A stretch of 59,726 bases of DNA, counting the filler, from Sluysia triapertura (lineage: Eukaryota), in assembly GCA_046118255.1 (NCBI GenBank). It is 5 parts of 5 records of this genome, joined end to end, with 100 filler letters (N's around TTAATTAATTAA, not from the genome) between each part and the next. Parts side by side here need not be neighbours in the genome. Positions count along the whole stretch, not along the records: positions 22,392 to 35,358 come from JBJNIA010068288.1; 4 more parts are not named here. One strand, 5' to 3'. Below are positions 14,511-52,844 of the stretch, piece after piece. The translations under genes were made by a program, and so were the position numbers. Within the stretch, counting starts at the first letter, position 1. Every line of letters starts with the position of its first letter. A model generated the notes under the pieces. It was not told the DNA's origin, did no database searches, and saw only the letters and a list, made by a program, of their open reading frames with translations.

Positions 14511-15701
14511 CCGAAACTACATGTAATTTAAATAAAAGATTTAAATTCATTTTATCTAACAATTTAATCATACTTAAATATTGTTATGATAAGATGTCTA
14601 AAATTTCGAAATGTCAATATTATTTCAATTTCGATGATTTAATTTAATCGCAGTTTGTAAAACTAATTTTTGTCGCTTTAAATTCCAAAAATTTAACAAT
14701 AAACAAATTTTAGTCAGTTAGATTTACTTGCAAAATAATTTTTGTATTTGTCCAATAATTTTTTGAATTTCATTCTGCAAATCCTACTTATAGTTAACTT
14801 CAATTGTATGGTCAAATTCTTTCTGAAATCAAAATCATATAAATGATACTAATACATAAAATAATATAGTCCATTCCTATATAATGGTAATTTTTTTATT
14901 GTAGTATTAGTTTGGCCATATAATTTATTTGTTTTTTATACAATATGTTAGTAATTTTGTGCTTATTCGTACTTGTCATTTCTATTCTTGCATATTTTTT
15001 CATTTCTACAACGATTCCGTTTGATGTGTAACATTTTCTGCTTGCTAATAAAGTAGTATTCCACTTCACATTTTTATTTTTCCAATTTTGTTTTCTTTTA
15101 CTTTCTTAAGTTAAATGAACTTTTTGAACTACTTTTTTCTCGATTTTGGTTTTTAAGTATTTTTTATAAAATTACTGAGAATAGTGGAAACTTACAAGTT
15201 TCTTTATAAATTATTTTAAGATTATTATTTCAAATTGTATTCTCCTAATTTATTTATTTAAAACTTTTAAGAGATTCTTGTAACTTCTACCTAATTATTA
15301 AGTGCCACGTTTTCAATTGTTGTTTGTACTTCAAGGAGAATATTAAAATAGCCTTTGTTAACTGCTTTAAATGAAGAGTTATTGAAACCATTTATTAATT
15401 TATATTAATATTTTAATGAACTAAATAAGTTATTTGTTATAATATATATCAATAAATACATTATTCGATATTTTTCTCAAGAGGATGGATAGAAAATTAA
15501 CTAATCAAATGAATTATTCGAGTGAGTTCATCAATCATATGTGCTTTAGATTAGGTGATTGTGTTAAAGACACTTTACTACCACAAAAAATAATTAAAGT
15601 ACAATAATACAAGGCTCAAGAATGGAATTAATTCAAGTTCTTAATGATTAATAATAAGAACTAACATCATAAGAATTAAAAATAAATTTGCCGTGTGTTA
15701 C

Positions 15702-15938
15702 TTGAGAAAAAATAGGATCTGAATCATAATTGTAAATTTTATTACCACTATTTGATCTATTTAACGATTTCTGGTTGGACTGTTTGTATGATTCTGCATT
15801 GAATGATTCAACTTTAACTAACTGTCGTGTTAAATCTTTCACATGAGCTTTATGCTTTTTTTGAATTGCATATATTTGATCGCGTGCATCTGACAACTCT
15901 GTTTTTAACTTTGATACTTCTGATTCTAGATCAATTGT
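15702..15938 (-). CDS. CCDC186: CCDC186-like coiled-coil protein, exon 5
   Basis: tttcag|TIDLESEVSKLKTELSDARDQIYAIQKKHKAHVKDLTRQL...; the KKH...KDLT.QL motif is typical of CCDC186; donor at 15701 is tentative. Confidence 0.75.
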
Positions 15939-16699
15939 CTGAAATGAACATAAAATATTTTAAAACACAAAATGCGGATGTTTGTTTTAACATATAATAA
16001 TTTAATACAATGTATAAAAGATGGGCAATATTAAGTGAAGTTGCGAAGAAGTACTTTTGCTATTGTCAAGGCAGACAGAAATTAACGTTAAAGTGTAAGT
16101 ATAATTAATACATTTCTCTTGTAATAATAATTTAATAATATAATACTGTGTAACACTATAACAATAATAATAATAAACTTAAGGTACTTAAAAATAAAAC
16201 TAAATTAAATAATAATTTTAAATACTTTTTAAGATCCTAAGATTCAAAGTCTCAATTATAAGTACTTTATTAAGACCTTTTAAAGTTCTTAAAAATTTTA
16301 ATGTAAGTAGAAGTTATAAAATACAAAATTATAACCTAAAAGACCATTATAATTTAACTGCTTCGTTTACAACATTTACATTTGATTAAAAAGTTATACT
16401 AATTTATTTTTATCTCGAATTAAAGGCTCTCCTCGAATTATTATCTCTAATTAACGTTGGATTGTGTACCGTAAATTTTCATCACATTTACTTAAAATCA
16501 TTTATTAATTTGTTGAATTTTTTTAAATAGCTACTGAAAATCATAATTTAAAATCATGTTAACATTTTTAAATTAAATTCTTTAAATCTGTAAAATCCTC
16601 TAACATTGTTGTTTATTATAAATTCATTACTTAAATTATATAACCTTAATTTCAAAAAGTCAGTCAATATTTAATTTTCACAACCATTTTAAATAGGTT

Positions 16700-17600
16700 C
16701 TTAAAGAAATATTTTTCACGTCCTATATAAAGGACTTAAAATCACATTTAACTAAACTGGTATCAAGTTTTATAACGAACCTTGAACTCAACTTAATTAA
16801 ATTTTTGAGATTCATATAAAAAATTTTGCAGAGACGTTTGTATTGTACATTGAATTCCGTAATTTTTCTTTCACGCAGTTCTTTTATAAAAATCCTGTGA
16901 AACAGCCTTTAAGTGCGCAATATTTTCAACTTTTAATAAGAAATATTATCATTATAAATTTACATTCAATCGCAAACTAAAACTTTCTTCCATCTTTTCT
17001 GATAATTTGCTTAATGCATTTATGACAGATTTTCTTCCCGAATGCATTTTATCATTTTCACATGATAAACACATCTACCTCAATGGTACTGCATCTTCTG
17101 ATATAAAGTATTTAAGGAAAGTTTTACTATTGCATTTGTATCTCGAATATTTAATTTTACGCTTTATGCTTAGTTTTACTTGCGCAATGTGCTTAAGCTA
17201 CACTTGTGGTATTTTTCTTTTGATTTAACTTCCATATTTTTAGACAAATTATTTGATAATTTTATCATAATTCGAAATATGTTTAGAATGTATTTCTTAT
17301 GTTTGGAAAGTTTTCATTTAATTCATACTGAATAAGAAGTTATGATAGAAAGTTAAGGAGAATTTGAGTTGCTTTTATGGAAATTCCGTTATTATTTTGC
17401 TATATTACAAAATTGTTATTTTAAAGTTGTAGAAATTTTATATATTAATATGTATGGATGTTTTTGAGGTTTTTGAGGTTTTTGAAGTAGGTTTTGTGAT
17501 TTAGATTTAACGTTTTGTTATTATAAATGTGATATTGTTTTTGTAGTTGTGAAGTTTATTTCTTTATGCATGAAATTTTAGATGAAAAGGTTGAACAAAG
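16700..17600 (-). pseudogene. Possible further cassette remnant (C/A-rich arm plus decayed Cys-containing ORF) inside a CCDC186 intron
   Basis: 17400-17590 is G/T-rich on + (C/A-rich on -). Minus strand 17230-16800 reads as a broken ORF (YKCNSKTFLKYF..MCLSCENDK..). Confidence 0.3.
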
Positions 17601-19379
17601 TTTATCTAAATACATTTATAAGCAGCTAAAGGATACGATGATAAAATTATGTGTTATTATGTGTACTACTCAATTATGTATTATTTTACCCGGTCTTGCT
17701 GATCTAGATTCTGACACAATGCATATGCTCAGGACTCTCAAAGTTATGAAGATTATAGTCCAATTTTAACTTTATTAAAATTTTGATTTAGAAAATCAAA
17801 TGATGTTTCCATAAGTAACAAGTGATAATATAGATCATGCAAAACTTGCTAAGTGATGATTTTAATTTCAATTAGTGGTATCTATGAGTCCAGTTCGTTT
17901 GAATTTAAAACCTACATATGGAACGTGATTGGAGTGACCATAACGACGGATTGACCACAGAAGCGGGGAAACACGACTCATCCAGAATCAAAACCTGCCG
18001 ATATCCGGAGGCACCACAGTTTTTAGTTTTTATAAGCTCATTTTTTTGATGGCTATAAAATTTTTATTGAGACAATCCTATTAAATTTCGCCTTCTTCTT
18101 TGAAATTAATACGTATTTGTTGTCTTCTGGTTTGAGTATAAGTGTAAAGCAAATAAATTCAAAGTTTATAAACGTAATGCTTCTAAATGTAAAGCAATTA
18201 AGTTTATTAAAAAATTCGCAAGCATTTAGGATAGAGAATTCTAAACTGAACGTAATAATGAAATTAAAAATTAATACGGTATTGGAAATAGAGATGAAAA
18301 GGTGATAAACAAGTTCGATTCCAATGGGAACACTAGCCTTAAATCACCGAAGTTTTATAAGTGCTACTGCATACGCTCTCAAATTAATAATATAATCGTC
18401 AAGCACCTAAACAAATAATTTTAAACAGGAATTTAAGCATCCTCGACACACAACATTTGTTCGTTTCGGATCACTATGATAAATACAATTTATATACTTA
18501 CTGAAAGTTCTGATTCATTGCAGTATCCTCATATTTACTTGAGTTTTATCGTCGAAACCATATGCACTTTCATCACTTTCACATGAATCTTTCTTAGAAC
18601 ATCTGGTACGATTACCTTAGGTTTATCTACTGAATTTCTTAATGCTTCATTTGAACTGTCTTCATAATTACCTGACTTATCGTTCGCAGGATGAAAACTC
18701 GTTATAGCGTCTGGCAGAGTGGAATAAGAGTTTTATCGCAGGTGAATTCCTTTTAATTTAAATCACTTTGGCAATTAATATTGCAATCATTCTTAATTCC
18801 TGAAGAACCCTTTTGACATGAGAAACCTTGTCGATACTTAACATTTAGGTAGGATGATAATAGATTTATTTATCAAGCAAAATACTACACAAAACTTCAC
18901 ACCTGTTGAATTCGAATACCGTTTATGATACGTCACAAATTAAATAATCGCAAGTCTATATTTCGGATTGTCTTCAGAAAACTGTCTCGGAAATTCTTTG
19001 CTTAATTTTTTCAAGTCTGTTTATTTCACATAAGGAGACATCACATTAATAGGAAGATTGATTGATAGATTGACCTTAAATTATTGCTAATTAATAATAA
19101 TCTCATTCACAACTTATGAAACATTTACAGATAAACATTACACCTTTTAAAAGGATCCATTCTTTGTGACCCCAAATAAGAAGATTATATTTTTCAATTT
19201 GTCACTTATACGAAATATGAACTAACTTATCACTAAAAATTAAACTCTATTTGAATTTCACTTTTATATTAACACAGGAATGTTTGCGCCTTTCTTTGGT
19301 TATGTTTTTATAGCTTGCAACAGTATTATATAATGTATTTAAGTGTTAATTAAAAATAATAATTCCAATTTTTATTAAC

Positions 19380-19677
19380 CTGATTTTGAATTTTTTCTTT
19401 CTCTTTTTGATATGTACATGAATCTGATTTACATTTGTCTTCCCAATAATTCAACTTTATCATTAAATCTTTTCCATTTCGCTCCAATTTCGTTATTTGT
19501 GACTGTAACTTGTTTTGATTATTTAACCATTCTTGCTTTTCAGATTGTAATTCAGCATTTTTGTCGGATAGTGATTGGATAAAATTTAACAATTCAGATT
19601 CCTTAAATTGAAAATTTGAAGCAATATTTTCGTTTTCCTCAATTCGGATTTTAAGTTCTTCATTAGTTTCTTGAAGC
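19380..19677 (-). CDS. CCDC186: CCDC186-like exon 4
   Basis: tacag|g LQETNEELKIRIEE...EKIQNQ|gt; phase 2/0, consistent with neighbouring exons. Confidence 0.8.
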
Positions 19678-20166
19678 CTGTATATTAATAATTAAATAAT
19701 TTTAAATAATATTTTAACGTAACAATAATTCTGCTCTTGATTTCATTGTAGTTCTTTAAGATAAAGTGTTATAAGAGTTCTCTTTTAATTGAAAAATTAT
19801 TCTTATTGAATGATTCAATATAATAGCAATTTTCGTAATTATTTGTGTGAAATGGAAATTTTTTTATAAAATCATATAAATTGATTTTCAGTTTTATTTA
19901 TGAAAATAAAATTCTAAAACGAGATTGATTTGATTTAATTTTATTTGAATGATCGGTGCTTCATTTCATTTAATCCAACGATCACCACAAATTGATACTA
20001 ACTCTATCAATCTATTCCTACTTGAAAAGGAAACTTATATATTTAATATATTTCCAAAATAAAAAAATGACTCCAGAATAATGAATACAAACTAATTTTC
20101 TGAGTTGTTTTCGAAATCTTTAAATACAGAAGTATTGTTTTATATGATGCAAATATAAAAACAAAC

Positions 20167-20366
20167 TTGGAACATTCAAGTTGCAAAGATTCCACTTTCT
20201 TCTCAAAGCTTTCCAAATATTTGATTCTTTCAACTTGCTCTTCTTTTAAAAATGTTAAACTTTTTACATTATCACGAAACTGTTTAATTGATTCTTCTTG
20301 ACATAGTTTATCCGCCTCTGCGTATTTTAAGCGTTCTTTAAGTTTAAGCAAGTCTTGATTTTGTAA
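20167..20366 (-). CDS. CCDC186: CCDC186-like exon 3
   Basis: ttag|LQNQDLLKLKERLKYAE...LECS aa|gt; phase 0/2. Confidence 0.8.
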
Positions 20367-20397
20367 CTAAATATATAAAATTATATTAAAATATTAC

Positions 20398-20619
20398 ACT
20401 AATAGTTTCTTTTTGACTCCTTAATTCAGATAATGACTTTATATGATTTTCATTCAAATCTTTGTATGCTAATTCCTTTTTCCTCAGTTCTTCTTTAATT
20501 GCTTTTAAAGTATTAGTTAAAGAATTTGACTTTATGTCTTCTGAATGTTGATATGTTTTTACAATTTCTTGGCAATTCGTTCTTAATGCATTATTTTCTT
20601 CTCTCAAAACTACCAACAT
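20398..20619 (-). CDS. CCDC186: CCDC186-like exon 2
   Basis: tatag|MLVVLREENNAL...KETIS|gt; 74 codons, phase 0/0. Confidence 0.8.
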
Positions 20620-20674
20620 CTATAAAAACAATTATAATATAAATAATAATATAAATATAAGCAACACAACTAAC

Positions 20675-21298
20675 GCGCTGCATGTCTTCATATTTTTTCT
20701 TTATATCTTTATTTCTATCAATTTCTTCTTTGTATTTCACTTCCTCATTTTTCAATTTTTGTTCTGCGACAGTAACTGAAGCTTTCAGATTAATAAGTTC
20801 CTTTTCGTAACTTGAAGAATCCGTAAATCTATTTTTAACTTCTTTGAGAAGGCGTTCCTTGTCAGAAGTTAAAGAATCAATTGTTACCTTTTGGTCTTTC
20901 AATTTTTGATCTAAATCTTTGGTTCTTTTTTGCAATTCCAGAAACTTTTGTTCAGACTGAGCATATTTTAATACCAATGATTCCTTTTCCTTTTTCATTT
21001 CATCAATAAATTTTTTCGAATTATCAGATTTAGTTTTTAATTGGGACTTTAAATCTTCGTTAAGATTTTTAAGATCATTATTTTCAATTTGTAATTTTGA
21101 GACTTTTGTAAATGACGCCTCAATGCAGCCATTTAGCCTAGTTATTTCACATTTTAATACATTGTAATCATCTGAAACCTCATTCAATGAAGTTTCCCCA
21201 TTATCAGATTCAGGCACCGCATCAGTTTTTGCAGCACAATCTAATTCACTTTGGCCATTAAAATTTGTGTCACATTTTGAGGAATCAATATCATCCAT
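20675..21298 (-). CDS. CCDC186: CCDC186-like exon 1
   Basis: ATG at 21298; coiled coil with KEKESLVLKYAQSEQK resembling the CCDC186 EKE.MVMKY..E motif; ends DMQR|gt after 208 codons. Confidence 0.8.
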
Positions 21299-22291: not shown

Positions 22292-22391
22292 NNNNNNNNN
22301 NNNNNNNNNNNNNNNNNNNNNNNNNNNNNNNNNNNTTAATTAATTAANNNNNNNNNNNNNNNNNNNNNNNNNNNNNNNNNNNNNNNNNNNN
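22292..22391. other. Artificial contig spacer
   Basis: N block with TTAATTAATTAA. Confidence 0.98.
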
Positions 22392-22499: not shown

Positions 22500-22671
22500 A
22501 AAAATACCTTTACAATTGTTTCAAGTTGATTTTAGAATTTAAAAGGTAGGTTTTGAAGGTGAGTGTTATGTTGGCAAAACTTATGTAAAATGAATGCTTT
22601 TGATGAGTGTTTTGGGAAATATTTAACAAAAATTTAATAAAATTTATTAAGGTTATATGTTGGCCGCCACA
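22500..22671 (-). mobile_element. Truncated 5' arm of the cassette family
   Basis: Reverse complement tgtggcggccaacatataaccttaataaattttatt...cataacactca aligns with the start of copy A at 23928. Confidence 0.7.
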
Positions 22672-22954
22672 CTCAAATCATTGACGACTTCATGTTGAAA
22701 ATATAAGATTATGTGTAGAGATGAAACAAAATAATCTTTTTTGTTATATTTACGAAATAAATCGATAGAAAATATAGTTATTTTTTTTCTCTTCATTTTT
22801 TTGATAATTTTTGATAATTTTGCTCCTTAAAACTTTATTAAAATATTTTAATTAGCCAATAATATGTAGGTTAAATGAAACACACTTTTACAATACGAAA
22901 TTTTATTAAATTACTATTTTTGTTTAACGTATTATTTCTGGTGTGATTTTTCTA

Positions 22955-23748
22955 ACATTTAACCTAAGGCAAAATATTTAAAGTAAACTTCTTATGTCAT
23001 AAAGAGGTCGTTTCTGTAACTAAAAAAAGCTAATATTTTATCTGAATAGTAATGCTCCTTAATTAGGGTCTTAACAAATGTTTAATTACTGTGTAATTAT
23101 TAATTCTTTAAAAAACTTATTAATTTACTTTCAATTAGACGACATTTAATTAAATAAATACAAAATACCAGCTATATTATGCAACAATACTAAAACTTTA
23201 TAACAATAATAAGACTAAAGATAAATAGAAAAGTTAATATTTTAAAAATTGAAGCTCCGATAATGTTTCATTTTATATCTGTATTATCCTTCAATATATC
23301 TGGGACTAATAATTAAGAGTTTCAGTAAATTTTATAAGTTCAACTTCGGAATATATATATAAATAATATATAAATAACCAAAGCATGGAACTCTAGACGA
23401 ATATTGAATGATTGTTTCTAGGTGGATGTTGCAAAAGTGTCGAATGTATTGTTAATTGTGATAAATTACGAAGAAATTCCAAAAACACCAAAATTGTAAT
23501 GTAGCAAAATCAAAAATGGTACTTAAAATATTATATTTCAAAATAGCTATTAACTAACATTCAGTAAACTGTAATTTGTTTATTTACTAGTCGTCAGCCA
23601 ATAGGAATCGACTGAATTTTCTAGAACATTCTAGAGCTTCTATTCAATTTTTAGAAGAGAATTTTTTTTGTAAAAATTACTTTTAAAGATTACTTTTTTC
23701 AAAAATACATTTTAAATGATTTTAGAGGGTTGTAATGACAACCTAACA
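22955..23748 (+). repeat. Dispersed repeat R1, copy 2
   Basis: aacctaaggcaaaata, tctgtaac, actagtcgtcagccaat and terminal hairpin ggttgt-aatg-acaacc followed by taa. Confidence 0.7.
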
Positions 23749-24933
23749 TATCCGGAAACACGAATTTTTGAAGGTCTTGCTCAGATCGATAATAAATCAG
23801 ACAATTTAATTTTGATTTAATGCAAAATTTATGGAAATATAATGATTTGAATGTAACGTTTCATTTTGACTATTAAAATAGTTATCTAACTGAAATATGT
23901 TTTTTCATTTTTAATTTCCAATAGTAATGTGATGGCCAACCCATGACCTTAGCAAATTTTATCAAAATTTATTTTAAATATAATACACATTTTCAAAAAT
24001 TTATTAAAAACATTTTTTGCATAACACTCAACCCCAAGATCTACAACTCACATTTTAAATTCACAATTCGATAAAAAAATAACTAACATCATACCACAAG
24101 CTTGTAAAATTCGTCACAACCGTTTTTATATCTTATTCCTTTTCAGATCCACCAAAATCAACTTACATTTTTCAAAACATTTCAAACCTTATAACATACA
24201 AACCACAATGATATTCAAATCCATCAAATTACATTAAAAATTCATCTAAAATATTTTATTCTTCATTTCAACTACAACCACGTTCGAAATTAACTACCAG
24301 ACACCTTCAGATTAATTTGAACATTCTAAATTCGTGATTCGTTATCATTTAATCATTACTTTCACACAAAACTCTAACGTATATTATCATTCATTCTAAA
24401 CACTCATGTTATTTCAAAATAATTAAATTATAACTTTCAATACTCAAGCTCATCTTCAATCAGAGACATTATTTCAATTAGAACATCAAGGTGTATTCTA
24501 ACATCCATATAAAGTATTCATATTGTTTCAAAATATTTAACACCTAAATCTATTTTCACTTGAAATGAGTAAATAGCATTAAAAATTACACCAAAACGCT
24601 TTACACATTATCTTATAACAACAGCCTCACTATTACACCTTAAAACCTGATCCAAGACAGGTAACAATAAGCTGTAACAACACAAGAGAATAGTAGTGCT
24701 TTGAATTGCCAGGATTTTAAATATGTTCAGAAATAATTAAAGAATTAGAAAGAAAGCTTGTGATATAAGTTTCAAAAAGAATTTATGTATTTAGTAATAA
24801 TAGTAATAATAATAACATTCTTGTTATTATTATTACTATCATCAATTTATTTTTCATTATTATTTATTATTATCATCATTACTCTATTTTAATTTCATTA
24901 TTTTTCAACTAAATTAAATTCTATCCGATGATT

Positions 24934-25057
24934 GCCACTATCACTGATGACATTCTTTAGTTGTCATCCTTGATAGTGGCTTATTGTATATTGCAAGAGT
25001 GAATAGTAGTATTACTGGTTGTCCAACCAGAGATTCACTCTGGTTGGACAACCAATC
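24934..25057 (+). promoter_or_regulatory. Twin-hairpin module of copy A (putative promoter or origin)
   Basis: gccactatca-ct-gatgaca / tgtcatc-ct-tgatagtggc stem; perfect 17-bp stem tggttgtccaaccagag-attca-ctctggttggacaacca (25016-25054) running into CCAAT; about 110 bp before the ATG. Confidence 0.65.
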
Positions 25058-25164
25058 AAAGAAAAACCAGAAAAATAGTTTAAAAAATTAAAATTGTAAA
25101 TTTCAAGTAGTAAAAAAAGAGGGTCACTGAAAAATTATCTCTCAAATTTATTGATAACTCAAAA

Positions 25165-26190
25165 ATGAAAATTTATGGTACTGTGAATATTAAAGTTTGT
25201 TATTAGGAGATATTACTAAATTGCCTCTAGAATCTGTAGTTAATTTAATTTTGATGTCTCCTTTTCTAAATAATTATGTGTCTATACCAGGAACCTTAAT
25301 TGGTGCTTTAGAAAGTAATTTGCACTTATGTGTTACTAAATTTTCTGAGGCAAAACATGAAGATATACGAAAACATTGTAATTGCTGGTTATCCAATGAT
25401 TTACCGTGTCACTTACCTTATAAACGTTTATTGTGTTACAACAGGACTTAGCAAATTTTAATTTTCACATTGTTTGTCTAACATTGTGTACAACATTTCA
25501 TCACAAAGACTGGTCTTTAATTACACCTAATTTAGCACTTGTAAATCAGAGAGCTGATAAAGTGGATATGATTAGAACTATAATTAAACCCATCGTTACT
25601 TGGTTGCGTGCCGGCATTCCGTTGGTTAATATGAATATAGTAATCTATAAAAGAGATTTAACTAAATATACATCTCAAAATGATTTAAAGGTAATAGAAG
25701 AATTTGAACGATTAAAGAAATTATTGCTTGATACTCTCATTAATAATATTGATGTACAAATTAAACAAGATATGATTTTTGTATATACGAAGATCTTTTA
25801 CATGTTAATTGATATAATTAGAAAATTGCCCGATAAGCACGAATTTAAATCGAAAAAGTTTTGCTTCAATGAACCACCAGAAAACGATAATGAAGATAAT
25901 GCTATGAATGAAGAGTTTAATGACGTATTAAAATTTAAAGAAAATGTTAAATAAACAACCAATAAAATATAGAAGTCATTTAAGCAGACACTATTCAAGT
26001 CAATTCAGCAAGAATGCTTTTTGCCCATTCAGTAGTGACAACAATGGTGTATGTATAAAGAGTGGAATTGGCTGCATCTATGCTCATACAGTTTACGAAT
26101 CGGTGTTTATCAAGTAAAACGATACAAATTATGATTATCATTCTTCTAGAATAGCAGAACTACTCATGGGTCTCATTCATCGACAATGAA
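25165..26190 (+). pseudogene. Frameshifted Macro-like (Macro-TIR family) domain, TIR-start remnant and CCCH finger
   Basis: GDITKLP..VVN...PGTLIGAL...KHEDIR..NCWLS..LP.HLPYKRLLC and WLRAGIPL...IVIY; later KYRSHL.RHY..FCPF..C.YK..GCIYAH; frameshifts near 25200, 25440, 25950 and 26050. Confidence 0.65.
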
Positions 26191-26714
26191 TTCGACTACC
26201 AACATTTTAATCATGGGCAATCAAGAAGTAAACAATTTTTGTAGTTACATTAATGATATTATAAATTTTTATTGTTATTTAGATAGTGAAATATATCGGA
26301 ATAAATTTTTGTGTGATTTTTATTTGTTTTTTAGTAATGAAGATTTTATAGTTCATTCTCGTTTTGTAATTTTAAAGAATAAAATTTTAATAGATTTTGA
26401 TAATGTGTTCAATAAATATAATGTAGTTAGTAATTTAAATTTAATTTCAAAATTCTTAATTTATCATAAAGCCAACAAGTAACAATGCAATTTGGTCATA
26501 TTATCATACTCAATTAAGACCACTTCAATTAAGCGTTTTAGTGTAACTTTCGTAGCAGCCGGGTAGCATCAATAAACGTTCTGATGAATTTACTTGTTTT
26601 AATAAGCGAATATGTGTTGAGTATACATTGTTTATTTATGTAAGTGATTGGCTATATCACTTGTATCCAGTATTATAGGATATTTTAGATTTGTTTGCAT
26701 CTACTCCATATTTA

Positions 26715-26835
26715 GAATTATGGAAGAATACTTGAGTGACATAGAGAGTAGTGATCGTAGTGATACTAGCAGTGACAATGATGAAGAAACAGTGATGAGT
26801 AGTTTTACTTGGCGAAATATGAACAATTTTTAACG
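26715..26835 (+). other. Acidic N-terminal peptide, possibly a piggyBac-like transposase remnant
   Basis: MEEYLSDIESSDRSDTSSDNDEE...FTW; a similar acidic peptide lies at 53770-53845; no catalytic domain seen. Confidence 0.25.
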
Positions 26836-27599
26836 TTTTTTGCGTCCTGCGAGTGCTATATTGCAAAATGTAGTTGTACTGAAGGGGTTGATTTAGTGAA
26901 TCATTCGGTTCTGTTCATCGAAATTAAACTTAGCAAAGGATAAATTTATGTTACGCCAATTTTTTGCAACCTTAGTTAAATATGTACCGAACAACATTTT
27001 AATTTTTATTGTTATTTGTTAAATTGTACATAGAAAACCTTAAATTTAAATGGTGAATAATGTATCAAGCTAATTATCTGCTTGGTTAGGAATGGCGCTA
27101 TTATTTCAGACGTCATCAATATTAATTCAACTAGAATTTTAATAAGTAAAATAAATAATTTTAATAATGTACACTTTATGACATAGTTATGAAAAATGGT
27201 TTATATATAAATGATCGAATTTATAATTATTCTCTGAAGGTTAGTTCTGAATTTATTCCTGAGGGTAGAGAGAAAAGTGCTATTTTTTATAGTTAAAATA
27301 AGTTTGTTCTAAATTTATTTACTCATAAATGCATTAAACTAATAATACATGTTTGATTGTTGATGATAAAGGTTTATTTAATTTTAGAATTTATTTAAAA
27401 TTATTTAAATTAATTGTATTTAATTTTAATAATTTAAATAATTTATTAACAAATAAAAGACACTCTTGACCAAAAAACATAAATTTATTTAATAAAGATT
27501 GTTAAATTTTCAGTCTGGTTGACCTAAAAATTTTAATTTACTTCTAGTAATGAATTGTTTGTGCGGCAAAAAGATACCATAGGTTTAGTGGTTCTGATT

Positions 27600-28900
27600 T
27601 GAAATTTGTTGACCTTTGGAATGTCGTCTACTTCATTGTTTCTTAATGATGTGATAAGTCTGCTTATTCTATCATATGTTGATTGAAGTTGTCGTCTGTG
27701 GCTTTGCCGCGATCAATTTCTTCAATATTTAGATAATATCTGCATCATTTGCCAAACTTAACACATATTTCAAATTCGTTGATCTGAGTACATTGTGCCA
27801 AACGTTTGTGTTAAAAAAGTGCTGTATTCGAACTAATCATATCCTTATTTTTGTTGTTGAAATCGATGATTGGATTAAATTTATTCCGTTGCTTACTTTT
27901 ATATATCGTAGCTTGTTGCGCTTGGGAGTTTAGCATTCTTTTAAACATTTGACTTTACCGAACATTTTATATGACTGGTACATTACATCTTCGTCTATCA
28001 CTTTGTTATCCAGCATAATGTGATTAACATTACATATAACAATGTTTTGTACGTTGGACTTGAGATCTATATGATCTTGATTATTTAATGATTCAAATAA
28101 CTGTTCAACATATGGTAAATTTCTGTACAACACTTAGCTACTAATTATAGTAATCTAGAACGATTGCTGCGAGCGTTTTTTTCTAATTTTTTTGAATCGT
28201 CTAGACATGATTGTGGAACATACCAATCCAACATTGAATTAAAGACATTTAATTTACCCCAATCTAATTCTGAATAAATTAATTTTATCTTGCGATCTAT
28301 CAATGATATCAATAAGTACTACACAAATAGTCATAATAATTTCTCCATTGTACTTGGTATTTTTGTAAATGATCATTTACTACAAAAGCTGTCATATCAT
28401 GTTTAATAGTTCTATTAAGATCAGATGCATTCATATTGTAGGAATATTTTGAGGGTTCTGACTTATCATTAAAAGAAAATATTTTATTAGCCTATAAAAT
28501 AAAATTAATTTCGAAAACTCAACAATGTATTGTCGTTGATAAGGTATGCTTATCCATTCATATATTTTTCGATTACTATCACTATCTTTTAATTGATGTA
28601 ATGTTGGCAAGACTAAATATAAAATGAAATCATTTTGAGCTTGATTACGAGTACCCATCAAGTCTGTCCATAAAATAGACGATAATTTTAATCGATGTTC
28701 TAAGTCAAGTTTACGGTAACAAATTTTTGTAAACTTTTGAATAAAATTTAGTATTATGATTGAAAATGAATTATCATTGTAAAGGTTTATAAAATACTCT
28801 AATTTAGCATTATTCATTGATGATGACTTTAATCGATTACACATAAACATATCAGTCACAATAACTTTTTGTCTTTAAATTGGAAACTAATTTTTTATAA
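27600..28900 (-). pseudogene. Decayed intronless cargo ORF B, function unknown
   Basis: ORF pieces 28431-28859 and 27930-28133; the frame continues past the stop (TPKRNKLRYIKVS...FFNTNVWHN). Confidence 0.55.
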
Positions 28901-29042: not shown

Positions 29043-29101
29043 TGATTGGTCATTCAATCAGAAAAGCAGTACAAAAATGAGATTGATTGGATGTCCAATC
29101 A
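29043..29101 (-). promoter_or_regulatory. CCAAT palindrome of copy B
   Basis: tgattggtcattcaatca ... tgattggatgtccaatca; 18-bp arms with 2 mismatches. Confidence 0.65.
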
Positions 29102-29789
29102 CTATTATGATAGGTATGTGTGTATATTAACCATACTGAATTAGCCAACCACAAACATCTAATGAATCAGCAATTGAAAAATTGTGGCAAGCAATTGAAT
29201 TTTTGTGAGAAATCATCTGTCGTAATTGACAGAAATTAAATTAAAATTTTTGCTGTTTACATGTTAATAGTTATATAATAATAATGAAAATAATAAAAAT
29301 GGAGATAATAATGATGAAATGAAAATAATAATAATATCATTAATATAATTATATTAAATACATAGATCTCGTTTTATCTTTTCTTTTTCTTGACATATAA
29401 ATAAATAAAATTAATTTAAATAAGGTTTTATTTGGTTAAGTTGTTAAAAATGATTAGAAGTATGCGTTTAATGTTTTTTAAAAGTGTTGATGTTTGAGTG
29501 TTTAAGAATTGTGAGCTTGAAATGTTTTGGATTGATTTTGAAATATATATTTGGTAGTTTGAAATGTGAATAGTAATTTTAGTGTTGTAGAATTGTGAGC
29601 TAAAAATATTTTAAATGAATTTGAACTGTCCATTGATGATTTTGAATGTAAGTATGATTTTAATGTTATAAAGTTGTGAATTTAAATGTTTTGAAATGTA
29701 AAAAGGTTTTAATAGATCTGAGAAAGTAGGATGTAGATTGTATCTTTTTGTAATTTTAATAGGTTTTGTTTTGAAAATGAAGCCATAAT

Positions 29790-30410
29790 GATGGCGAAAT
29801 TATTTCCAATTAGGAAGATAAGATAATTTTTGATTCTGCTGTAGTTCATGGAAGAAAATATTAATTGTATTGTTAAAAAGTGTAAATATCAATTAAATAA
29901 AGTATCACAGATTCGAAAATTTATTAATAAAGTAACAGCTAAACTTAATGTTCATTCATATACTCATGTACTAAATTTAATATAGAAAAGTGCAGCAAGA
30001 AGATCTCATCAACACCTTATCCTAAGGAATTATATTGGTTGGCAATAAAAGCAAGAATATAATTCAAAATCATCACAATAATTTACAAATGCTTACATTA
30101 AGGAAATCTTGAATATCATTTAGATATAAATCGAAAATTGGAAAGCAAGATGAATATTTCATTGAGACTTAATAATCTGTACAGAATCCCACAATGATAG
30201 GTTGTATACTGTTTATGTATCAAAAATATACAACCAGTTACCAGAGAATGTCAAATTACTAGAAGATTATGAAATACATAAGGAAAAGGTAAAGTTCTTT
30301 CTGTTTCAGAAATACCACAGTGGATGATTCATTTTAAGTGCCTTTGAGTACATACTATTCAGTAGATATGAGCGTAATATAAATTAATATATTATTATTA
30401 ATATCATTAT
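29790..30410 (+). mobile_element. L2/CR1-clade LINE 3' remnant
   Basis: Broken RT C-terminus (MEENINCIVKKCKYQL..IRKFI...AAR...ELYWLAIKARI*FKII.IIYKCL) and an L2-style tail gcctttgagtac...gagcgtaatataaat...tattattatta. Confidence 0.8.
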
Positions 30411-33625: not shown

Positions 33626-35358
33626 ACTGCGATTTTATTTCCGACAAATATGCAGAGTTATTCAAAACCATTCAAACAGTCAACCGATTTACCAGTATAA
33701 AATACAAATTCAATTGTAGACTCGCTAAAAACAAAACTTAGATAAAATAAACATAAAATAAACTTTAAGAACTAAAAACAGCTTAAATTAAATTAAATTT
33801 TTTTTACACATAAAAAGTTTCAACTTTAACTTAAACATTTAAGATTAATAAGATTATTAAACATTTTAGTTTCACTGTATATTTTGCCAGATAGTTTACT
33901 ATTCCTTCCACTTCTCTCTTTATATTTTTAATACCTCTTGATACGTTCCCAGTCATTCAATTCTTATATTTGTAATAAACTTTATTATACAAAATATCAC
34001 TGTCAACCACAAACATATCATATTTTATATACATTTTATAGCGTTCCTTTCCTCAAACAATCACAACGTTAATTCAAACAATAACACATCAGAATCTGAT
34101 TTATTCAAAAAATTAATACTCTACACGCTCAATACGAATTAATATTAGATCAAATATAGAAATAACTTTTCTTCTACGTAATCTATGCTGTTCAACAGAT
34201 TTTCAATATATAATTAATGTTTTACGAGTCCAAGTTGTAACCGATTTTTACTTGTATGATGAGCAGAATTATGTTTTTTGAAAATAAAATATTATTGTGC
34301 AGAGAAATTTGCATTCAAATAAATCGAGAATCTTACAGTCGAAAAACTCAGTAGTAATCTTTTAATATTTTATGTATCCAGTAAAATTTTGTTCAAACCT
34401 TTTAATAAGCATTTTTATTATAAAGTGAGATTTTTTATTGTATATTAAAACAGAGTATCATAATTCATTATTTTTGTTATAATTGAGAAACTTAAATGAA
34501 AAATAATTTTAGTCTATAATAAATTACAGTTTGGAATAAGCAGTATTAAGATTTAAATAAATCTTAAACGAACTTTGATACTAACGTATACTATAATGAA
34601 TTTATAATGAATGACTTCTCTAATGGCCGAGTAGAGAGTTAAACATTTCCTTGAAAAACTAAAATTTAATATGTTAATGTAATTGAAATTAAAACAAAAC
34701 TTTACTATAACAATCTGAGTCAACATAAATTGTTGCATAGTTTTCAATTAGATATAAACAAGGGTTTTGTCATCAAACTATCATCAACCAGAGTATTTTC
34801 ACGGATTTGGGTTAAAATCAAACAATGTTAAAGCTCACTTAATCAGTCTTAAGATAAACAATATCTTTTCATGTTCAGTAAAATCCACTGGGTTCAATAT
34901 CTATATATTCACATTGAAAAATGGTTTCTCATACAACATCGACTAAATAAACCCAAATACTTAACATTAGAGCAGATTATTAAACAGAAACAGCTATTTT
35001 AAGAATAAAGTATGATATTTTAAATGGTTTTCACTGGTTTTAATGTGTTTTTATAGTTATGTTAGATAGAGTAGATCGTGACATTATTTTGTGACGTGTT
35101 TCTCATTTGGTTCAATAAGACGGTTTGAATAATATTTAAAAGAAAGAAGACAACATGTTTTGTAGAATAACGTGAAGACACATGAGGTTTACATATATGT
35201 GGGTTAAAAAAGAGAAAATATTGGAATATCATTACGGAACTCCGTATTTATTTGACAAATGACACCTGAAATAAGAAACACAATTTTAAATTGCTTTTGT
35301 ATTACAGGAAGTGCCCCATTTTTAAATCTGAAAAATTGAATTAACCAGCATTTTCAGC

Positions 35359-35458
35359 NNNNNNNNNNNNNNNNNNNNNNNNNNNNNNNNNNNNNNNNNN
35401 NNTTAATTAATTAANNNNNNNNNNNNNNNNNNNNNNNNNNNNNNNNNNNNNNNNNNNN
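35359..35458. other. Artificial contig spacer
   Basis: N block with TTAATTAATTAA. Confidence 0.98.
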
Positions 35459-42653: not shown

Positions 42654-43628
42654 TGTGGTGGACAACCTTTATAACTATTAAATTTTATTAAAAAAATTAA
42701 TTTAATTTTTCAACACTTCAACATTCAAATATCTATCTCCTATACACTCACATAATACTTCATCCACCAAAACTAAGTCACATTCACAATCTCATAATAT
42801 ACAAATCTCATTTACACCTAATGTCATCAAATTACATAACAGATCCATTAAAACATGTAACTCTACATTTATAACAATCAAACCTTAACTACTTTTAAAA
42901 TTACCCACTCGACATCTTCGAATCAACAGCAACCTTTCAGATTCATCATTTATTATTGCACAATCACTAACAACACAAAAATAACAACACTCAAAACAGC
43001 AATAAAACAAATCATAATACCAACATGGTACATCAACCTTTCAAATATACTAAGAGTTGTACTATAATTTATCTTTTTACACTTATTAAACCACACTTTT
43101 CTGAATAAATCTTATGGTTACAATCTTCTAACATTCAAATATTACTCTCAATCAAGAACTTGTCCATTTCACTATATGGCATAAAAACTGCTATCGCACC
43201 TTGAAATGTTAAGTACATATGCTAAATTTACTTAGATTAATCTGTACGTGAAGATTTTAACTTTAAACATATTTAAATGCAGTACAATATGTCCAGAAAT
43301 CCTTAGGAGTTAAAGAAAGATTGTTTACAGTTTTTAAGGAGTCCAAAAGTTTATGCAATGTAATAACAACAATAACTTTAACATCGCTATTGCTATTGCA
43401 TTCAGTGCAAAATGTTCAAGAGAAAGAAGGAAAGATTTTGTGGATTCAGAAGAAACGAAGAAATGTATGCGTATATAATAACAATAATTATAATAATAAT
43501 ATCTATAACAAAATAATAATAATAACAATACTAATATCAATAATAATAACAATAATAATGATAATCAAAATAATAATCTAAATGAATAAATTAATAAAAA
43601 TCGTAGTTTAAGCCAACTTTGTTACTTC

Positions 43629-43797
43629 CATCATCATCGGCGACATTTCATTTAACAGTTAAAATTATATGTCAGCGATGACGATGACGGCCATCATGGT
43701 TGACTAAATTATCATCAAGTAATTGCTATATTGATTGTCCAACTAAAATCGTGTATGTATAGACATCATTTACACGATTTGGTTGGATAACCAATCA
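43629..43797 (+). promoter_or_regulatory. Twin-hairpin module of copy C
   Basis: catcatcatcg-gc-gacat / atgtc-ag-cgatgacgatg; tgattgtccaactaaaatcgtgta / tacacgatttggttggataaccaatca. Confidence 0.65.
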
Positions 43798-43957: not shown

Positions 43958-45190
43958 ATGGATGAAAATTCACAGTTCTGTTTCTCACTAAATCCAGAAA
44001 AAAAATCATATTTTCAAATCAATCAAAGAATGAATTTATAAAGTTTTTGCGAGAGAGATATAATCTTATGTGTCGAACTATTGATTTCTATATGAAGTAT
44101 TCTTTAGTATTAACTGAGAACAACAAATTATCTGGTTTAAAAATTGTGCATGTACACAATTCAGGTTGCACATTTCCAAAATTAGAATGGATAAAGAGAT
44201 TGTCACAAGTTAATAGTTTTAAATCATCGGATCTAATTCGCACATGCCATGATAGTTTGTTTTTAATCAAGGAACAAGTTCAGTTATTAACATGCAACTC
44301 GGTAACGAGGTATATTATATATTTCGACAATCGTTTAATTATAAAGACTATATTCAAAAAGGAGAAGAGAAATATTATAGTAAATCAAGTTAATATGGCA
44401 TATGAATTCATTATTTTCTTAATCTATTTTTTAAAAGACCACAATCGTAACAAAGGCAATATCACCGTGGCATTCAACATTTTAATGACCGTTCTTAATA
44501 AAGAAAACATGAAATATACAGTTCAAGATGATATTTTACTAAATGCTACACATCTGTTCATATTCAGTAATTGTTTAGTTTTTTTACATGTTAAAGACTA
44601 AATATGTAATAAATGTTTATAGCTTTCTCACCTATCACATTAATTTTCATAACAACATTATGATTACTGATCTTATGATTACCACAAGTAATCTATGTCT
44701 CATGAGTATTCTAAGAACATCGGGTTTGTCAATACTTTTAAATCATAATAGAAGTACCGTTTTTGAAAAGTTTAAAGATCATAAATTTGCTCAAAGTGTT
44801 CCAGATATTATTGATAATTTTAAAGATGTTTTTATGAGTATTAGTGGACGCGTGAGTAACATAACAATTCATGAATTTTATATTATTGTCACTGAGTTTA
44901 TGTTAGAATTACCCATGTTCGATACTACAGATCTTCTCGCCATGTTTGAAAGATGCTTATTTCAAAATAATAACAAACTTAGTTCTAGAGAAGTCAGTTG
45001 CGCATGCTGCTTGACTTCCCAAAATTCAAATACAAATGTGTGGAATTCGGAAATTTCATGGTATAATAACAGTGTAAATTTTTCTTTTGTAAACTCATTA
45101 TACAATTTTAATTTTAATTATTATTTAGACGATAATATAAAGGCAAGGCCAATGACGTTACACGAGGATGCAGCAATAAATTTTAAATAA
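43958..45190 (+). pseudogene. Frameshifted intronless cargo ORF C, function unknown
   Basis: ATG at 43958, frameshift into ORF 44047-44601, overlapping ORF 44588-45190; no introns apparent. Confidence 0.6.
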
Positions 45191-46459
45191 ATTGTTACGT
45201 TTAAAGATAAAGAAATTTTTACAGTTTAATTTGTTTATTTCATAGACTTTAGTGAATTCTTGATTTTAAACTTGCATAAAGATACTAAATTTAACAGTAA
45301 TAAAAAAATTAGATCAAATGATATGAATAGAGATTATAATTATTTTTATTCCCAAGTTAAAAAACTTATCATTAAAAGAAATTGTCTTCATATAGGTCTA
45401 GCGTCTCAAGACTTAATCATATTATTTCGCTCCAAATTAAAACCTATAATTTATGAAATGAATCAATTAGATTGTTCCCAGTTAAACCTAATATATCAAA
45501 ACATTTTGTTAACATCTCCAAATTGGCATCAGCTAAATTTAATATGTCCAATTCCAACCTCAGTAAACTTTAACACTTTGATTTGTGCATTGATTGTTGT
45601 GATATGATGAACAATTGATGTATTAATATTGTTAGTTATTGATATTTTGCATTGGTAGTGATTTTTTGGTTTCGGATTTTTCAAAAAAAATGTAAGTGAT
45701 TTTAATCATTTAATTTTAATTATTTAATTATTTAACTATAAGTAATTTATTAAACCATTTTAATTTTATAATCAAACTAGAGTAAAATGTTAATAACTAT
45801 TTTAATTATTTTGTTTTAATACATTAAAACTATATAAATAAACATTTTCACAATATTTGCATAACATTTTGATAACATTTTGTAAAATTTTTTGCAACAG
45901 ACTTCGAAATTCTGGCTACGACTCCAGTAGTTTTTTAATATTCTTTAATCATTGTGAATCTACATTTTACGTTAGTTTAATTATTATAAGGTTCGATACC
46001 CTAGAGTATCATTAGTAAAATATACTTAAATTTATTTAATTCATTTGGATCGTATAGTGGATCATTAGCAAAATATATTTTTAAATTATTTTATTGAGTT
46101 AACTAATTAAGTTAGTTCTGTAATTTATTATTATTATTGACAATTCTTATAAATTTTTAATCTTTTGTATAAGTTTTATAATAAAGTTTTTCTTTTTAAT
46201 TCCTTAGTCAATTAAAATAGTTTTAAAATTTGTTAACACTTAAAATTCCCTTGCTTTCGAGAAGCTAGAATTTAAATCTAGCAAATAAAATTTGTTATAA
46301 CGATTCCATAAAACGGAATCTACGTAAAATTACTAAATAAATTTTAATTCTATTTATAATCAAAGTTTTTCTAGATACTACAATACTACAAACTTTCAAT
46401 TATATTTACATCCTAAATTTGATAATTATCAGAGAATCTTAACAATAGGCATTAATAAA

Positions 46460-48808: not shown

Positions 48809-49213
48809 AAAATACTTCAACCTTTCATTAAGTACTTCAAACCATTCTATCTAATGTATAAATCTTGTTTTCAAATTATAAATCTTCAATAAGTTTTAAT
48901 AAATTATTCTAACACTCTTTATTTCATTTACAACCTAAACCACAATATCTTTCAAAAACAAGTTTAAGATAACTTTAAAAACTTCATTATCATACTGCGA
49001 AGCAACAACCACAAATGATACATTATACACTTAGTTACGGTTGTCCCTTCACAGTATAACATTCGTTTCTTTCCTTTTATTTCATTTGTGTAAATAGAAA
49101 GAGAAGAATATAAAGAAAAAGTTCGTGTTTAAGATTTTCAAAGATTTATGCGGTTTTAAATTTTTATAATAATAATAATAACAATAATTTTACCATTTTT
49201 ATTATTATTAATA

Positions 49214-49256
<43 letters not shown>

Positions 49257-49311
49257 CATTACTGTTAATTAACAATTAAAAATAAAATTGTTTGACGGTT
49301 AAACTGTTACT

Positions 49312-49476
49312 GCCATCACCAGTGTTGACAGTCTATGTCACATTTACATTAGGCTGTCAGCCCTGATGATGGTCAGTCATCAGTATTTACATATTACAAA
49401 TTGTATCATTGATTAACACACACACCACCCAATCAGACTATTTTTATCTTACTTACTAGTAATCTGATTGGGTGGA
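49312..49476 (+). promoter_or_regulatory. Twin-hairpin module of copy D
   Basis: ccatcaccag-tg-ttgacagtcta / taggctgtcag-cc-ctgatgatgg (two G-T pairs); ccacccaatcaga / tctgattgggtgg perfect 13 bp. Confidence 0.65.
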
Positions 49477-49630: not shown

Positions 49631-51204
49631 ATGGAGCATTTACTACGATATTTCAATTTTAAAGGTGTAGAACTTATGAAAAAGAAATTAGTTAGACAAT
49701 GTCGTGAAAACTAATGTTAATCAACTTTACCAATACGTTTTTTGCAGGTTATTCAAGAATATCCTGATTCTAATTTGAAATGGAATCAATTCTTAAATGG
49801 TAAACCTATTTGTAATACTTGTATGAATAAAATAAAATCATCCTTCAATTATGATATACAGTGCCAAGAAATAATGAATTGGAAAAAGGAATGGATTACG
49901 AAGACACGTGATAACAGTTTGATTAATGATTTCAATTCTAATAAATTGTTTTCTGATTGATATCGATGTGTTCGGTGCAATAAATGGTGACAAGTTAGTC
50001 TGTCAGTGGAAATAATGCCTACAGAATTAGATAACTTCTCATGTAGTTTTATAATAAAACATACCAAAGAATTCAGTATATAAAGTCAAATCTAGAAAGA
50101 TTTTTGTTTTCCTTAGTTTATGAATTGCCGTTAGAATCTTCAATTAATTTAGAATGTTTCAATAATTCAGCTTTAAATATTGTTGGAATAAACCCAACTG
50201 TAACTGTACTAGATTTTTCTCTACCTGTAAATTGTAAAGAAGTTCTTCGAAATTTTCATGCTTTCAAGCAGGTGTCACACATTAATTGTGTTGTAGAAGC
50301 TATTAATCCCGTGGTTATGGATGATTGTGAAATAAGCATGTTTCTAGGATTTAAAGCTAATCAGAAATACTTACGTCTTAGTTTTCGAAATCTTATGTTA
50401 TTTTTATGGGTATCCGATGCTAAGATTCTAAAGTCTAGCCCAGATAGCGGCCTAAAAACAAATGAAAAGTTCGAGTTGAATGTAGATGTTCTAAGAAAAT
50501 ACATTATCGTCGACAGAAAATACATAAATCTTTTTTGTAAATTAGAGCATGTTAATTTAGTTAAAACATTTATTAAAAAGACCGGTCTATTTAATAAAGA
50601 TGTATTGCCAAAGGGCAGATTAAGGATTATAAAATTACAAAAATATAATTACGATGAAATTCAAGAGAGTTTAAGAGGTTCAATGTTCATCAGCGAAAAG
50701 GTAAGAAAACTTAGTAATTATGAAAACAATAAAGAAAAACCAGCTATGTTTGGTAGTCATTACGATGGTCGATTATCCTATACAAACTATGATTGTCAAT
50801 GCAAATTATTTCCGATTAATCCTGTTACGTTAGATGATTTTCGTGACTTTATGTTATCAAGTAAGAAGATAATTCTAATTATAAAATTTGCCGACTTATT
50901 CTACATTATGTTTTACTTTGTTAGTTTTAAGTTTACATTTTTATATGATCATCATTTAGATAACAAGCAATCTTACAGGATCCCGAAAATGCAACAAGAA
51001 GAGCGATGGGCAACAGATACTAGAAATTTAGAATCAAAATTCATTATTAGAACAATTTTTAATTTAAAAATTATAATTAACTTTTTTAGTTGTGAAATAA
51101 AATTTTATAATAGTTATCGTTTGTTTATAACTTATTATTTTAATACCAATCTATTAAAATCACGTCGAAATGCTATGCTTAGTTTTGAAATAAACTTTAT
51201 ATAA
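49631..51204 (+). pseudogene. Disrupted zf-CW plus divergent Macro-like domain cargo
   Basis: *YRCVRCNKW*QVSLSVEIMPTELDNFSCS fits zf-CW (W.QC..C.KWR...F/WYC) with W and R codons changed to TGA; frameshift near 50047; LPLESSINL...HINC aligns with LPLESVVNL...HCNC of cargo A. Confidence 0.6.

Positions 51205-52801: not shown

Positions 52802-52802
<1 letters not shown>

Positions 52803-52844
<42 letters not shown>

Follow-up and report, generated by a model that had tools for sequence, protein, structure and literature searches.

Layout of the window and of the repeat block

The window, i.e., the whole stretch of 59,726 nucleotides of Sluysia triapertura DNA analyzed here, has a G+C content of ~25% and is composed of five contigs joined by artificial spacers (N44, TTAATTAATTAA, N44) at 10844-10943, 22292-22391, 35359-35458 and 48709-48808, so that adjacency across the spacers is meaningless. 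The host is a fast-evolving invertebrate, conceivably a free-living flatworm to go by its composition. Two host genes were recognized in the window. Exons of SF3B3 at 3395-4531 were identified by a Pfam match (63-68% identity to named animal proteins, 77% to P0002), the host introns of the region 3395-5760 being ~270 and ~1000 nt long with GTTAG donors. A multi-exon coiled-coil gene at 15651-21298 (minus strand) gave generic coiled-coil matches only in Pfam and presumably resembles CCDC186; no hairpin module of the kind described below was present within 1 kb upstream of the first of its long exons. A ~150-bp tandem duplication (83% identical, spacing 216) was also noted at 1221-1590 within a 216-codon minus-strand open frame.

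The twin hairpins studied here terminate a non-coding repeat of ~1.1 kb (~1130 bp in copy A and ~1140 bp in copy C, from the left motif to the last CCAATCA), represented in the window by copies A-D and a fragment, E (Table 1). Its parts follow in the order left motif (TGTG..GG..CAAC; found in A, C and E), G-poor tract (3-6% G, 20-24% C), purine-rich stretch, TAA/TTA microsatellite, hairpin 1 and hairpin 2. Searches of the window with profile HMMs and a hairpin-1 covariance model revealed no further copies, and the block gave no phage matches. The four copies in 59 kb, which would amount to ~67 per Mb provided that the contigs are representative, outnumber the two recognized host genes.

Table 1. 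Repeat copies, their hairpins and the cargos that follow them (positions in the window)
Feature	Position	Strand	Description
Copy A left motif and G-poor tract	23928..24460	+	4% G, 22% C, non-coding
Copy A TAA/TTA microsatellite	24792..24902	+	first part forms an extra 18-bp A/T stem (24800-24839)
Copy A hairpin 1	24934..24980	+	arms 19 bp (24934-24952/24962-24980), 2x2 internal loop, GACA/TGTC core, loop 9 nt
Copy A hairpin 2	25016..25058	+	perfect 17-bp stem, each arm quasi-palindromic; terminal ACCAATCA extends past the stem
Copy A cargo	25165..26482	+	short tiled ORFs in alternating frames: 25194-25448, 25424-25951, 25932-26114, 26150-26479
Unkempt-like CCCH zinc finger ORF (copy A cargo)	25932..26114	+	Pfam PF25427, E 2.1e-6, 28 bits, cut-off of 31.1 not reached; PDB 5ELH, E 2.2e-4
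Copy B cargo	28431..28850	-	139-aa orphan ORF, convergent with the A cargo
Copy B hairpin 2	29043..29101	-	two TGATTG(G)-n-CCAATCA units, arms 18 bp, loop 23 nt
Copy B hairpin 1 remnant	29217..29232	-	GACAG core, matching 3' arm lost; no hit with the hairpin-1 covariance model
Copy B microsatellite, purine-rich stretch and G-poor tract	29275..29790	-	3% G
Copy C left motif, G-poor tract, purine-rich stretch and AAT microsatellite	42654..43577	+	
Copy C hairpin 1	43627..43688	+	arms 19 bp (43627-43645/43670-43688), loop 24 nt
Copy C hairpin 2	43732..43797	+	arms ~24 bp, imperfect; terminal ACCAATCA
Copy C cargo	43958..45604	+	tiled orphan ORFs 43966-44598, 44579-45187, 45230-45604
Copy D G-poor tract and TAA/TTA microsatellite	48810..49261	+	tract cut at the contig start
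Copy D hairpin 1	49312..49373	+	arms 19 bp (49312-49330/49355-49373), loop 24 nt
Copy D hairpin 2	49425..49475	+	perfect 13-bp stem, one CCAAT and one ATTGG
Copy D cargo	49631..51204	+	orphan gene, predicted 57-nt intron (49691-49747), 385-codon open frame
Copy E	22527..22671	-	limited to the left motif plus ~145 bp from the start of the tract; adjoins block U and copy A back to back
Block U	22900..23750	+	upstream repeat block joined to copy A; AGCCAAT site; terminal 16-nt hairpin

The block is homologous among the four copies as far as the last CCAATCA in hairpin 2, where the homology stops. Tract identity between copies amounts to 59-69% (A-B, 69%); the tract homology of the A-B, A-C and B-C pairs exceeded 200 of 200 shuffles, the pairs with the truncated tract of D being weaker (8-34 of 200 shuffles reached the score). 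Past hairpin 2, the scores were reached by 7-98 of 200 shuffles, with the proviso that at such divergence a short A-rich homology could escape detection. The GC skew is -0.57 to -0.76 upstream of the hairpins, a level reached in 3.5% of 1128 windows, and mostly about zero or positive just downstream. The G-poor tract has no tandem period and was rejected as a coding sequence, given that its mismatches show no codon-position bias, its gaps break the frame and stops occur in every frame.

Block U (~850 bp, non-coding) was also found at 54080-54930 (+) and 13620-12790 (-), in both cases without the hairpin module. Its copies are 64-66% identical overall, with a ~56-bp core of 91% identity (13542-13597/54143-54198), and two of them carry the AGCCAAT site. 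At the two other sites block U is followed by sequence different from that of A, the two being collinear with each other over 3.6-4.5 kb; consequently, blocks were apparently swapped near the left motif too. A block U motif at 48017, considered as the far end of copy C, did not rise above chance (87/100 shuffles).

Several other repeats occur in the window. Long collinear repeats without long ORFs at 14570-11010 (-) and 52730-57270 (+) comprise a microsatellite, block U and a further 450-bp block, 74% identical. The regions 34215-34320 and 42620-42732 share an identical 18-mer and a similarity of ~107 bp that involves the left end of copy C; at 34 kb it lies after, not before, a C-rich tract. 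A second family of C-rich tracts, 74% identical, was found at 41438-41723 (-) and 58106-58376 (+); the tract at 41 kb is followed by the same-strand orphan ORFs 40139-39534 and 39349-38750, with twin hairpins absent. An array at 48405-48492 repeats a 22-bp unit with TGACCAAT in it 3.8 times, and an isolated perfect 12-bp inverted repeat (loop 29 nt) lies at 37052-37104, outside the hairpin module.

Pairing of the twin hairpins in the diverged copies

Across A, C and D, hairpin 1 can be aligned over 19 bp with no gap. As was claimed in a previous sequence-only reading of this DNA, its pairing is kept in these copies in spite of sequence change, and the inner GACA/TGTC core is invariant: of 57 pair cells, 46 are Watson-Crick, 4 A-C, 2 G-T and 5 other, and in columns 5, 6 and 11 one Watson-Crick pair is exchanged for another. 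Double-sided changes were counted in 4 of the 19 pairs (one via a wobble), a number attained by 20 of 500 shuffles, and the covariation score for A, C and D was equalled in 12 of 500; with three sequences, the covariation is borderline. Changes in the same column of both arms exceeded chance for A-D (p 0.006) and A-C (p 0.03), but not for C-D (p 0.15). Slid-register controls were paired at 18-61% versus 84% in the true register; ~60% pairing persisted after a slide by 3, owing to a CAT/ATG triplet repeat that makes up part of the outer stem. When a perfect ancestral stem was left to decay independently at matched divergence, this reproduced the pairing together with three compensations in 0.01-0.3% of the simulations (100,000 per setting). 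In B, hairpin 1 survives only as a remnant.

Hairpin 2 is present in all four copies, and measurement of its arms (17 bp in A, 18 in B, ~24 in C and 13 in D) and of its unlike loops confirmed the nested CCAAT/ATTGG palindrome with 13-24 bp arms described before. Summed over the copies, it comprises 69 Watson-Crick, 2 A-C, 1 G-T and 3 other pairs and 5 bulged bases; its inner arms differ wholesale between copies, and it can fold either as one long stem or as two short ones. A scan for perfect stems (at least 10 bp, at least 5 G+C, loop up to 30) detected three in the whole window, all of them inside hairpin modules, and none in 30 second-order Markov simulations. Folding z-scores were -10.3 for A, -6.0 for hairpin 2 of C, and -5.5 and -4.2 for D, while both windows of B folded no better than shuffles (z -0.8 and -1.4) and the 150-nt window of hairpin 1 of C folded weakly (z -1.75, 12/200 shuffles). 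Taken together, the four copies demonstrate that the twin hairpins are a real, non-random feature, the stems of which remained paired as identity between the copies fell to 60-70%, in line with the dyad symmetry proposed earlier.

The symmetry looks like a feature of DNA and not of RNA. The sense-strand G-T pairs mentioned in the sequence-only reading proved not to be enriched, 3 G-T standing against 6 A-C mismatches in both hairpins together (an alternative register in hairpin 2 of C adds one more G-T). Neither was a strand favored consistently by MFE (plus/minus: A, -63.4/-63.1; B, -42.4/-51.5; C, -56.3/-57.4; D, -68.0/-64.3). Since neither mismatches nor folding energy prefer a strand, the signal was taken as belonging to DNA. 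Rfam yielded no family at the gathering score (18 generic hairpin matches were all far below threshold) and no tRNAs were found, which, along with the absent strand bias, speaks against known structured RNAs (miRNA, snoRNA, hammerhead, SECIS, tRNA); for the same lack of a strand bias and an Rfam family, and with loops ranging from 5 to 25 nt, the formerly suggested small-RNA precursor found no support. Were the hairpins to act more generally as RNA, i.e., as small-RNA precursors or cis-acting RNA in a sense or antisense transcript, one could understand why hairpin 1 of A, C and D kept its stem length and a mismatch around columns 11-15, and why 4 of its 11 cells without a Watson-Crick pair turn into G-U when read on the minus strand. 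Apart from the points listed above, however, the mismatch types agree with plain transition decay (C/T, 42 of the 84 changes in the A-B tract) and the presumed sense start is downstream of the hairpins, and we regard an RNA role as very unlikely.

The cause of the pairing is a separate matter. Stems are created and repaired by template switching, with multibase compensations (PMC8794818), and the adjacent double change at columns 5-6 of hairpin 1, as well as the wholesale differences between the inner arms of hairpin 2, agree with such a process. Inasmuch as template switching yields the same multibase compensations, covariation here is no proof of selection on pairing. Hence, of the former proposal of selection on structure, the maintenance of symmetry stands, while selection becomes one possible cause only (PMC8794818). 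The extreme version, in which template switching beside a microsatellite re-perfects stems devoid of any function, would gain from the CAT/ATG repeat in the outer stem, from the adjoining TAA/TTA tract, which likewise forms a stem in A and D, and from the loss of hairpin 1 in B. It is nevertheless hardly credible, considering that 9 of the 19 pairs of hairpin 1 are invariant, that position and order are kept in copies merely 59-69% alike, and that CCAATCA is concentrated in the hairpin module.

Unrelated cargos behind a CCAAT-bearing end

The sequence past hairpin 2 is unrelated between the copies, co-oriented and rich in ORFs. Co-oriented ORFs follow hairpin 2 in all four copies and cover 0.54-0.60 of the next 2 kb versus 0.10-0.16 window-wide (p 1.5-2.4e-4); for ORFs of at least 100 aa the cover is 0.54 versus 0.10 (p 2.4e-4), with zero antisense cover, B being the weakest (0.22). 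The cargo ORFs did not match one another. The Unkempt-like CCCH finger of the A cargo is the only clear sign of a host-type domain in the cargos. No relatives of the 385-aa frame of D were found in a word search, among 1.84 billion representatives or in PDB, and a single search with the second ORF of C revealed no homologue. Other leads for D were discarded: look-alikes in Atlas (nematode F-box-associated clusters, 0.76-0.80) were at chance level, the single-sequence AlphaFold model was unusable (pLDDT 32.6), and the zf-AD match was weak (E 0.003 and 0.04).

The first ATG lies 107 (A), 193 (B), 161 (C) and 156 (D) nt downstream of hairpin 2. The distance of ~110-160 bp previously given for A, C and D is thus right, but these ATGs open, unspliced, only 13, 27 and 27 codons, respectively, compared with 139 in B. 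The D cargo appears to be spliced, as judged from the predicted intron, which removes in-frame stops and has a GTTAGA donor, as in a host SF3B3 intron, and a T-rich acceptor; looser splice settings gave a 439-codon model. The same scan did not extend the first-ATG frames of A and C; its splice scores are heuristic, with one of the two host acceptors falling under the strict cut. In A and C, the frames are interrupted after 13 and 27 codons and the later ORFs overlap in alternating frames, for which decay, splicing or an assembly error may each be responsible. As separate observations, the region 27380-27490, where the convergent A and B cargos meet, is very AT-rich with AATAAA on both strands and could be a shared 3' end, and short acidic Ser/Asp/Glu-rich frames occur at 26720-26830 (without a Pfam match) and 53760-53845, both reminiscent, as we assume, of piggyBac N-termini.

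Pfam scans of 121/122 ORFs of at least 58 aa in the window (61 ORFs scanned at E 0.01 and 60 at E 0.001) detected no domain typical of a transposase, RepHel, RT, integrase, NS1 or capsid, and none of these was found on comparing 14 ORFs with PHROGs or in the stop-read-through frames of the four cargos.

Signs of a promoter concentrate in hairpin 2 and just behind it. The word ACCAATCA occurs three times in the window, each time closing hairpin 2 (A, B and C), and 7 of the window's 12 TGATTGG/CCAATCA heptamers lie inside hairpin 2. In A and C, the 3' CCAATCA has remained intact and the 5' partner has decayed; this difference suggests that the site is read as sequence. The leaders after hairpin 2 are A-rich on the plus strand (45-52% A), hence T-rich on the minus strand, and in 4 of 4 no ATG occurs at +30 to +105, where 4-5 would be expected (p ~0.01; for 0-105, p 0.04-0.06; windows chosen post hoc). 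RRCCAATCA, present upstream of the leaders, is what we take to be the NF-Y box consensus, and the TGACA/TGTCA dyad near the CCAAT sites is presumably a TALE-type motif. We know of no requirement of NF-Y multi-CCAAT promoters for 13-24 bp complementary arms. In addition to the sites upstream of a leader, CCAAT in both directions and the neighboring dyad recall such promoters; NF-Y is reported to bind CCAAT boxes borne by repeats and to associate with TALE factors (PBX; PMC4889920). The minimum CCAAT spacing for double NF-Y binding is given as 19 bp (PMC4889920), and two of the CCAAT sites of B are closer than that; canonical CCAAT sites number one each in A and C. What differs from such promoters is that the sites here are embedded in foldable stems with variable loops, and it speaks against the promoter reading that NF-Y binding by itself needs no complementary arms. 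Even so, among the functions listed by the sequence-only reading, an NF-Y-type promoter is the best supported, judging by the ACCAATCA and heptamer counts, the ATG-poor leader and the co-oriented ORFs.

Relation to known mobile elements and the proposed role of the hairpins

Among known kinds, the element would seem by analogy to work most like an end of HINE/Helitron2 elements. The hairpins could be the terminus of a Helentron/Helitron2-type rolling-circle element (HINE/DINE-1-like), serving as single-strand signals for RepHel, with the cargo acquired by end bypass or representing neighboring genes read outward. On the minus strand, the order would then be a T-run, a palindromic subterminal repeat with its inverted copy (hairpin 2), hairpin 1, the microsatellite and the body. 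In A, C and D, hairpin 2 is followed by hairpin 1 and then the microsatellite in a fixed order, as expected of HINE end hairpins, hairpin 1 of B being degenerate. The left end of HINEs consists of subTIR, IR and microsatellite, with subTIRs sometimes palindromic and T-rich targets (PMC4067079, PMC7492417), and the minus-strand flank of hairpin 2 is T-rich here, insertion at T|T without duplication being the rule for such elements. Compensatory changes are likewise reported in Helitron2 ends (PMC3627910), and gene capture by hairpin bypass in Helitrons (PMC6431247). Blocks were shuffled here at small hairpins. The overall likeness thus embraces a non-coding interspersed repeat, end hairpins, a nearby microsatellite, a T-rich flank, compensatory changes, modular blocks and gene capture (PMC4067079, PMC3627910, PMC7492417, PMC11417382, PMC5148889).

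Unlike in HINE/Helitron2 elements, however, both long hairpins are at one end, the stems are longer (13-24 bp versus 5-15 bp in HINEs), and the cargo is placed past the hairpins, in the same orientation and after an ATG-poor leader, which a rolling-circle terminus does not by itself account for. No significant ATIR/subTIR pair (8-15 bp in such elements) was found: when the left motif was compared with the hairpin region, the best asymmetric repeat was matched by 9 of 300 background windows in 20 comparisons, most of which were not significant. A 3' subTIR with a short stem-loop 8-35 bp from the other end was not found either; small GGTTG/CAACC hairpins do occur close to the left motif of C and in block U, but in no fixed layout. 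RepHel was missing from the 121/122 ORFs scanned. CTRR is absent after either hairpin; Helitron1, which has a 5' TC and a 3' hairpin before CTRR, was rejected since none lies 10-12 nt past hairpin 2 (plus strand) or hairpin 1 (minus strand) in the four copies. As the asymmetric repeat is not significant and neither a target site nor a transposase was found, we did not file the element as a Helentron/HINE, and we hold this affiliation to be unlikely, albeit one to be reckoned with.

The ends of Pack-MULE-type elements possess inward promoter activity. Pack-MULEs and other cargo-carrying non-autonomous DNA transposons also resemble our element in having unrelated gene pieces beside a common end (PMC6431247). 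Unlike them, it shows no pair of terminal inverted repeats and no target duplication around A-B, and C and D have no facing copy. A TIR transposon or Pack-MULE was rejected on the 69% identity of the A-B tracts and because the sole flanking repeat of at least 8 bp lies inside the tract of B.

One may also see in the block the U3/R part of a long LTR belonging to a decayed or non-autonomous retroelement. The left motif would then supply the TG with which the LTR starts, block U would be the 3' internal region, and the cargo would consist of accessory ORFs. In agreement with this, TGTG opens the left motif of A, C and E, and the related hairpin at 23728 has a purine-rich stretch in front of it. 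Giant planarian gypsy elements (Burro/Ogre) have long LTRs or control regions, tandem repeats and accessory ORFs in AT-rich genomes (PMC6431247), and double CCAAT boxes occur in LTRs (PMC4889920). But every contig lacks a second co-oriented copy, no primer-binding site is common to the copies after hairpin 2, no gag, RT, integrase or other pol domains were found in the window, and the D cargo is seemingly spliced; moreover, ORFs follow 4 of 4 copies, while 3' and solo LTRs should have none. An LTR retrotransposon was rejected on the missing direct pair, common PBS and gag/pol domain despite the TG start, and a descent from one in the above form is quite improbable.

Equally improbable in our view is an endogenous multipartite or ambisense DNA virus-like element, segments of which would carry differing genes behind a common non-coding region (origin, packaging signal, promoter). 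In PEVE/PIVE, ambisense densoviruses and the common regions of nanoviruses, a hairpin-bearing control region is shared while the coding differs, in convergent units of ~6 kb. By analogy, the block looks like such a common control region, with unrelated, tightly tiled orphan ORFs, with A and B facing each other across ~6 kb and with a hairpin 2 that folds as one long or two short stems. PIVE/PEVE are named planarian virus-like elements, and integrated parvovirus-like elements are reported in a planarian and Hydra (PMC3198968). Against this reading, no Rep, NS1, SF3 helicase or capsid domains were found by Pfam and PHROGs, the facing tracts of A and B are only 69% alike without a flanking duplication, C and D have no inverted partner, and, unlike in these viruses, the cargo carries a predicted spliceosomal-type intron and a host-type zinc finger. 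The nonamer TAGTATTAC, which we assume to be the one of ssDNA virus origins, lies outside any loop in A and is missing from B, C and D. A ssDNA virus-like element of the parvovirus, CRESS or PEVE kind was rejected on the lack of an HUH Rep/NS1, an SF3 helicase or a capsid and on this word being confined to A and not placed in a loop.

Considering all this evidence, we favor, at a probability slightly under one half (about 0.45), the reading that the hairpins are the promoter end of an abundant, old, non-autonomous, cargo-carrying DNA element, the stems of which are kept symmetric by arm-to-arm copying together with selection. Hairpin 2 would be a putative CCAAT (NF-Y-type) promoter, from which transcription would start in the A-rich stretch some tens of bases past it and read the cargo. 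The inverted CCAAT/ATTGG may also fire backwards, or the block may otherwise become single-stranded; either would account for the scarcity of C on the strand opposite to the upstream tract. Once single-stranded, the arms could fold back and copy each other by template switching, whereby the inner arms would be rebuilt and adjacent double changes produced, with selection presumably holding the invariant cores GACA/TGTC and CCAATCA. New cargo would be joined just past hairpin 2 during mobilization, so that a captured sequence would receive a ready promoter. A putative cargo-switch point at hairpin 2, in keeping with the recombination site for cargo exchange considered formerly, would fit the loss of homology right after it. 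No target-site duplication, far end or mobilizing enzyme was found in the window, and the word "mobile" accordingly rests on dispersal and block shuffling.

Probably, the element is a new variant of cargo-carrying non-autonomous elements; a literature search, with most subscription journals outside its reach, gave no description of such an element. It is rather unlikely, but conceivable, that it represents an undescribed modular class of mobile elements, in which the twin-hairpin CCAAT end is both a cargo-exchange joint and a ready promoter, loading whole genes that bear introns or derive from the host, such as the Unkempt-like zinc finger, at tens of copies per Mb and acting as a factory for lineage-specific genes in this animal. 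The hairpins in any case exemplify that apparent compensatory change without strand bias need not imply a functional RNA. Were their end indeed a ready promoter for exchanged cargo, one short repeat end would supply promoters to many unrelated orphan genes, and a repeat family would be tied directly to how lineage-specific genes arise and come to be expressed, a link that could be tested via start sites and breakpoints against a single landmark.
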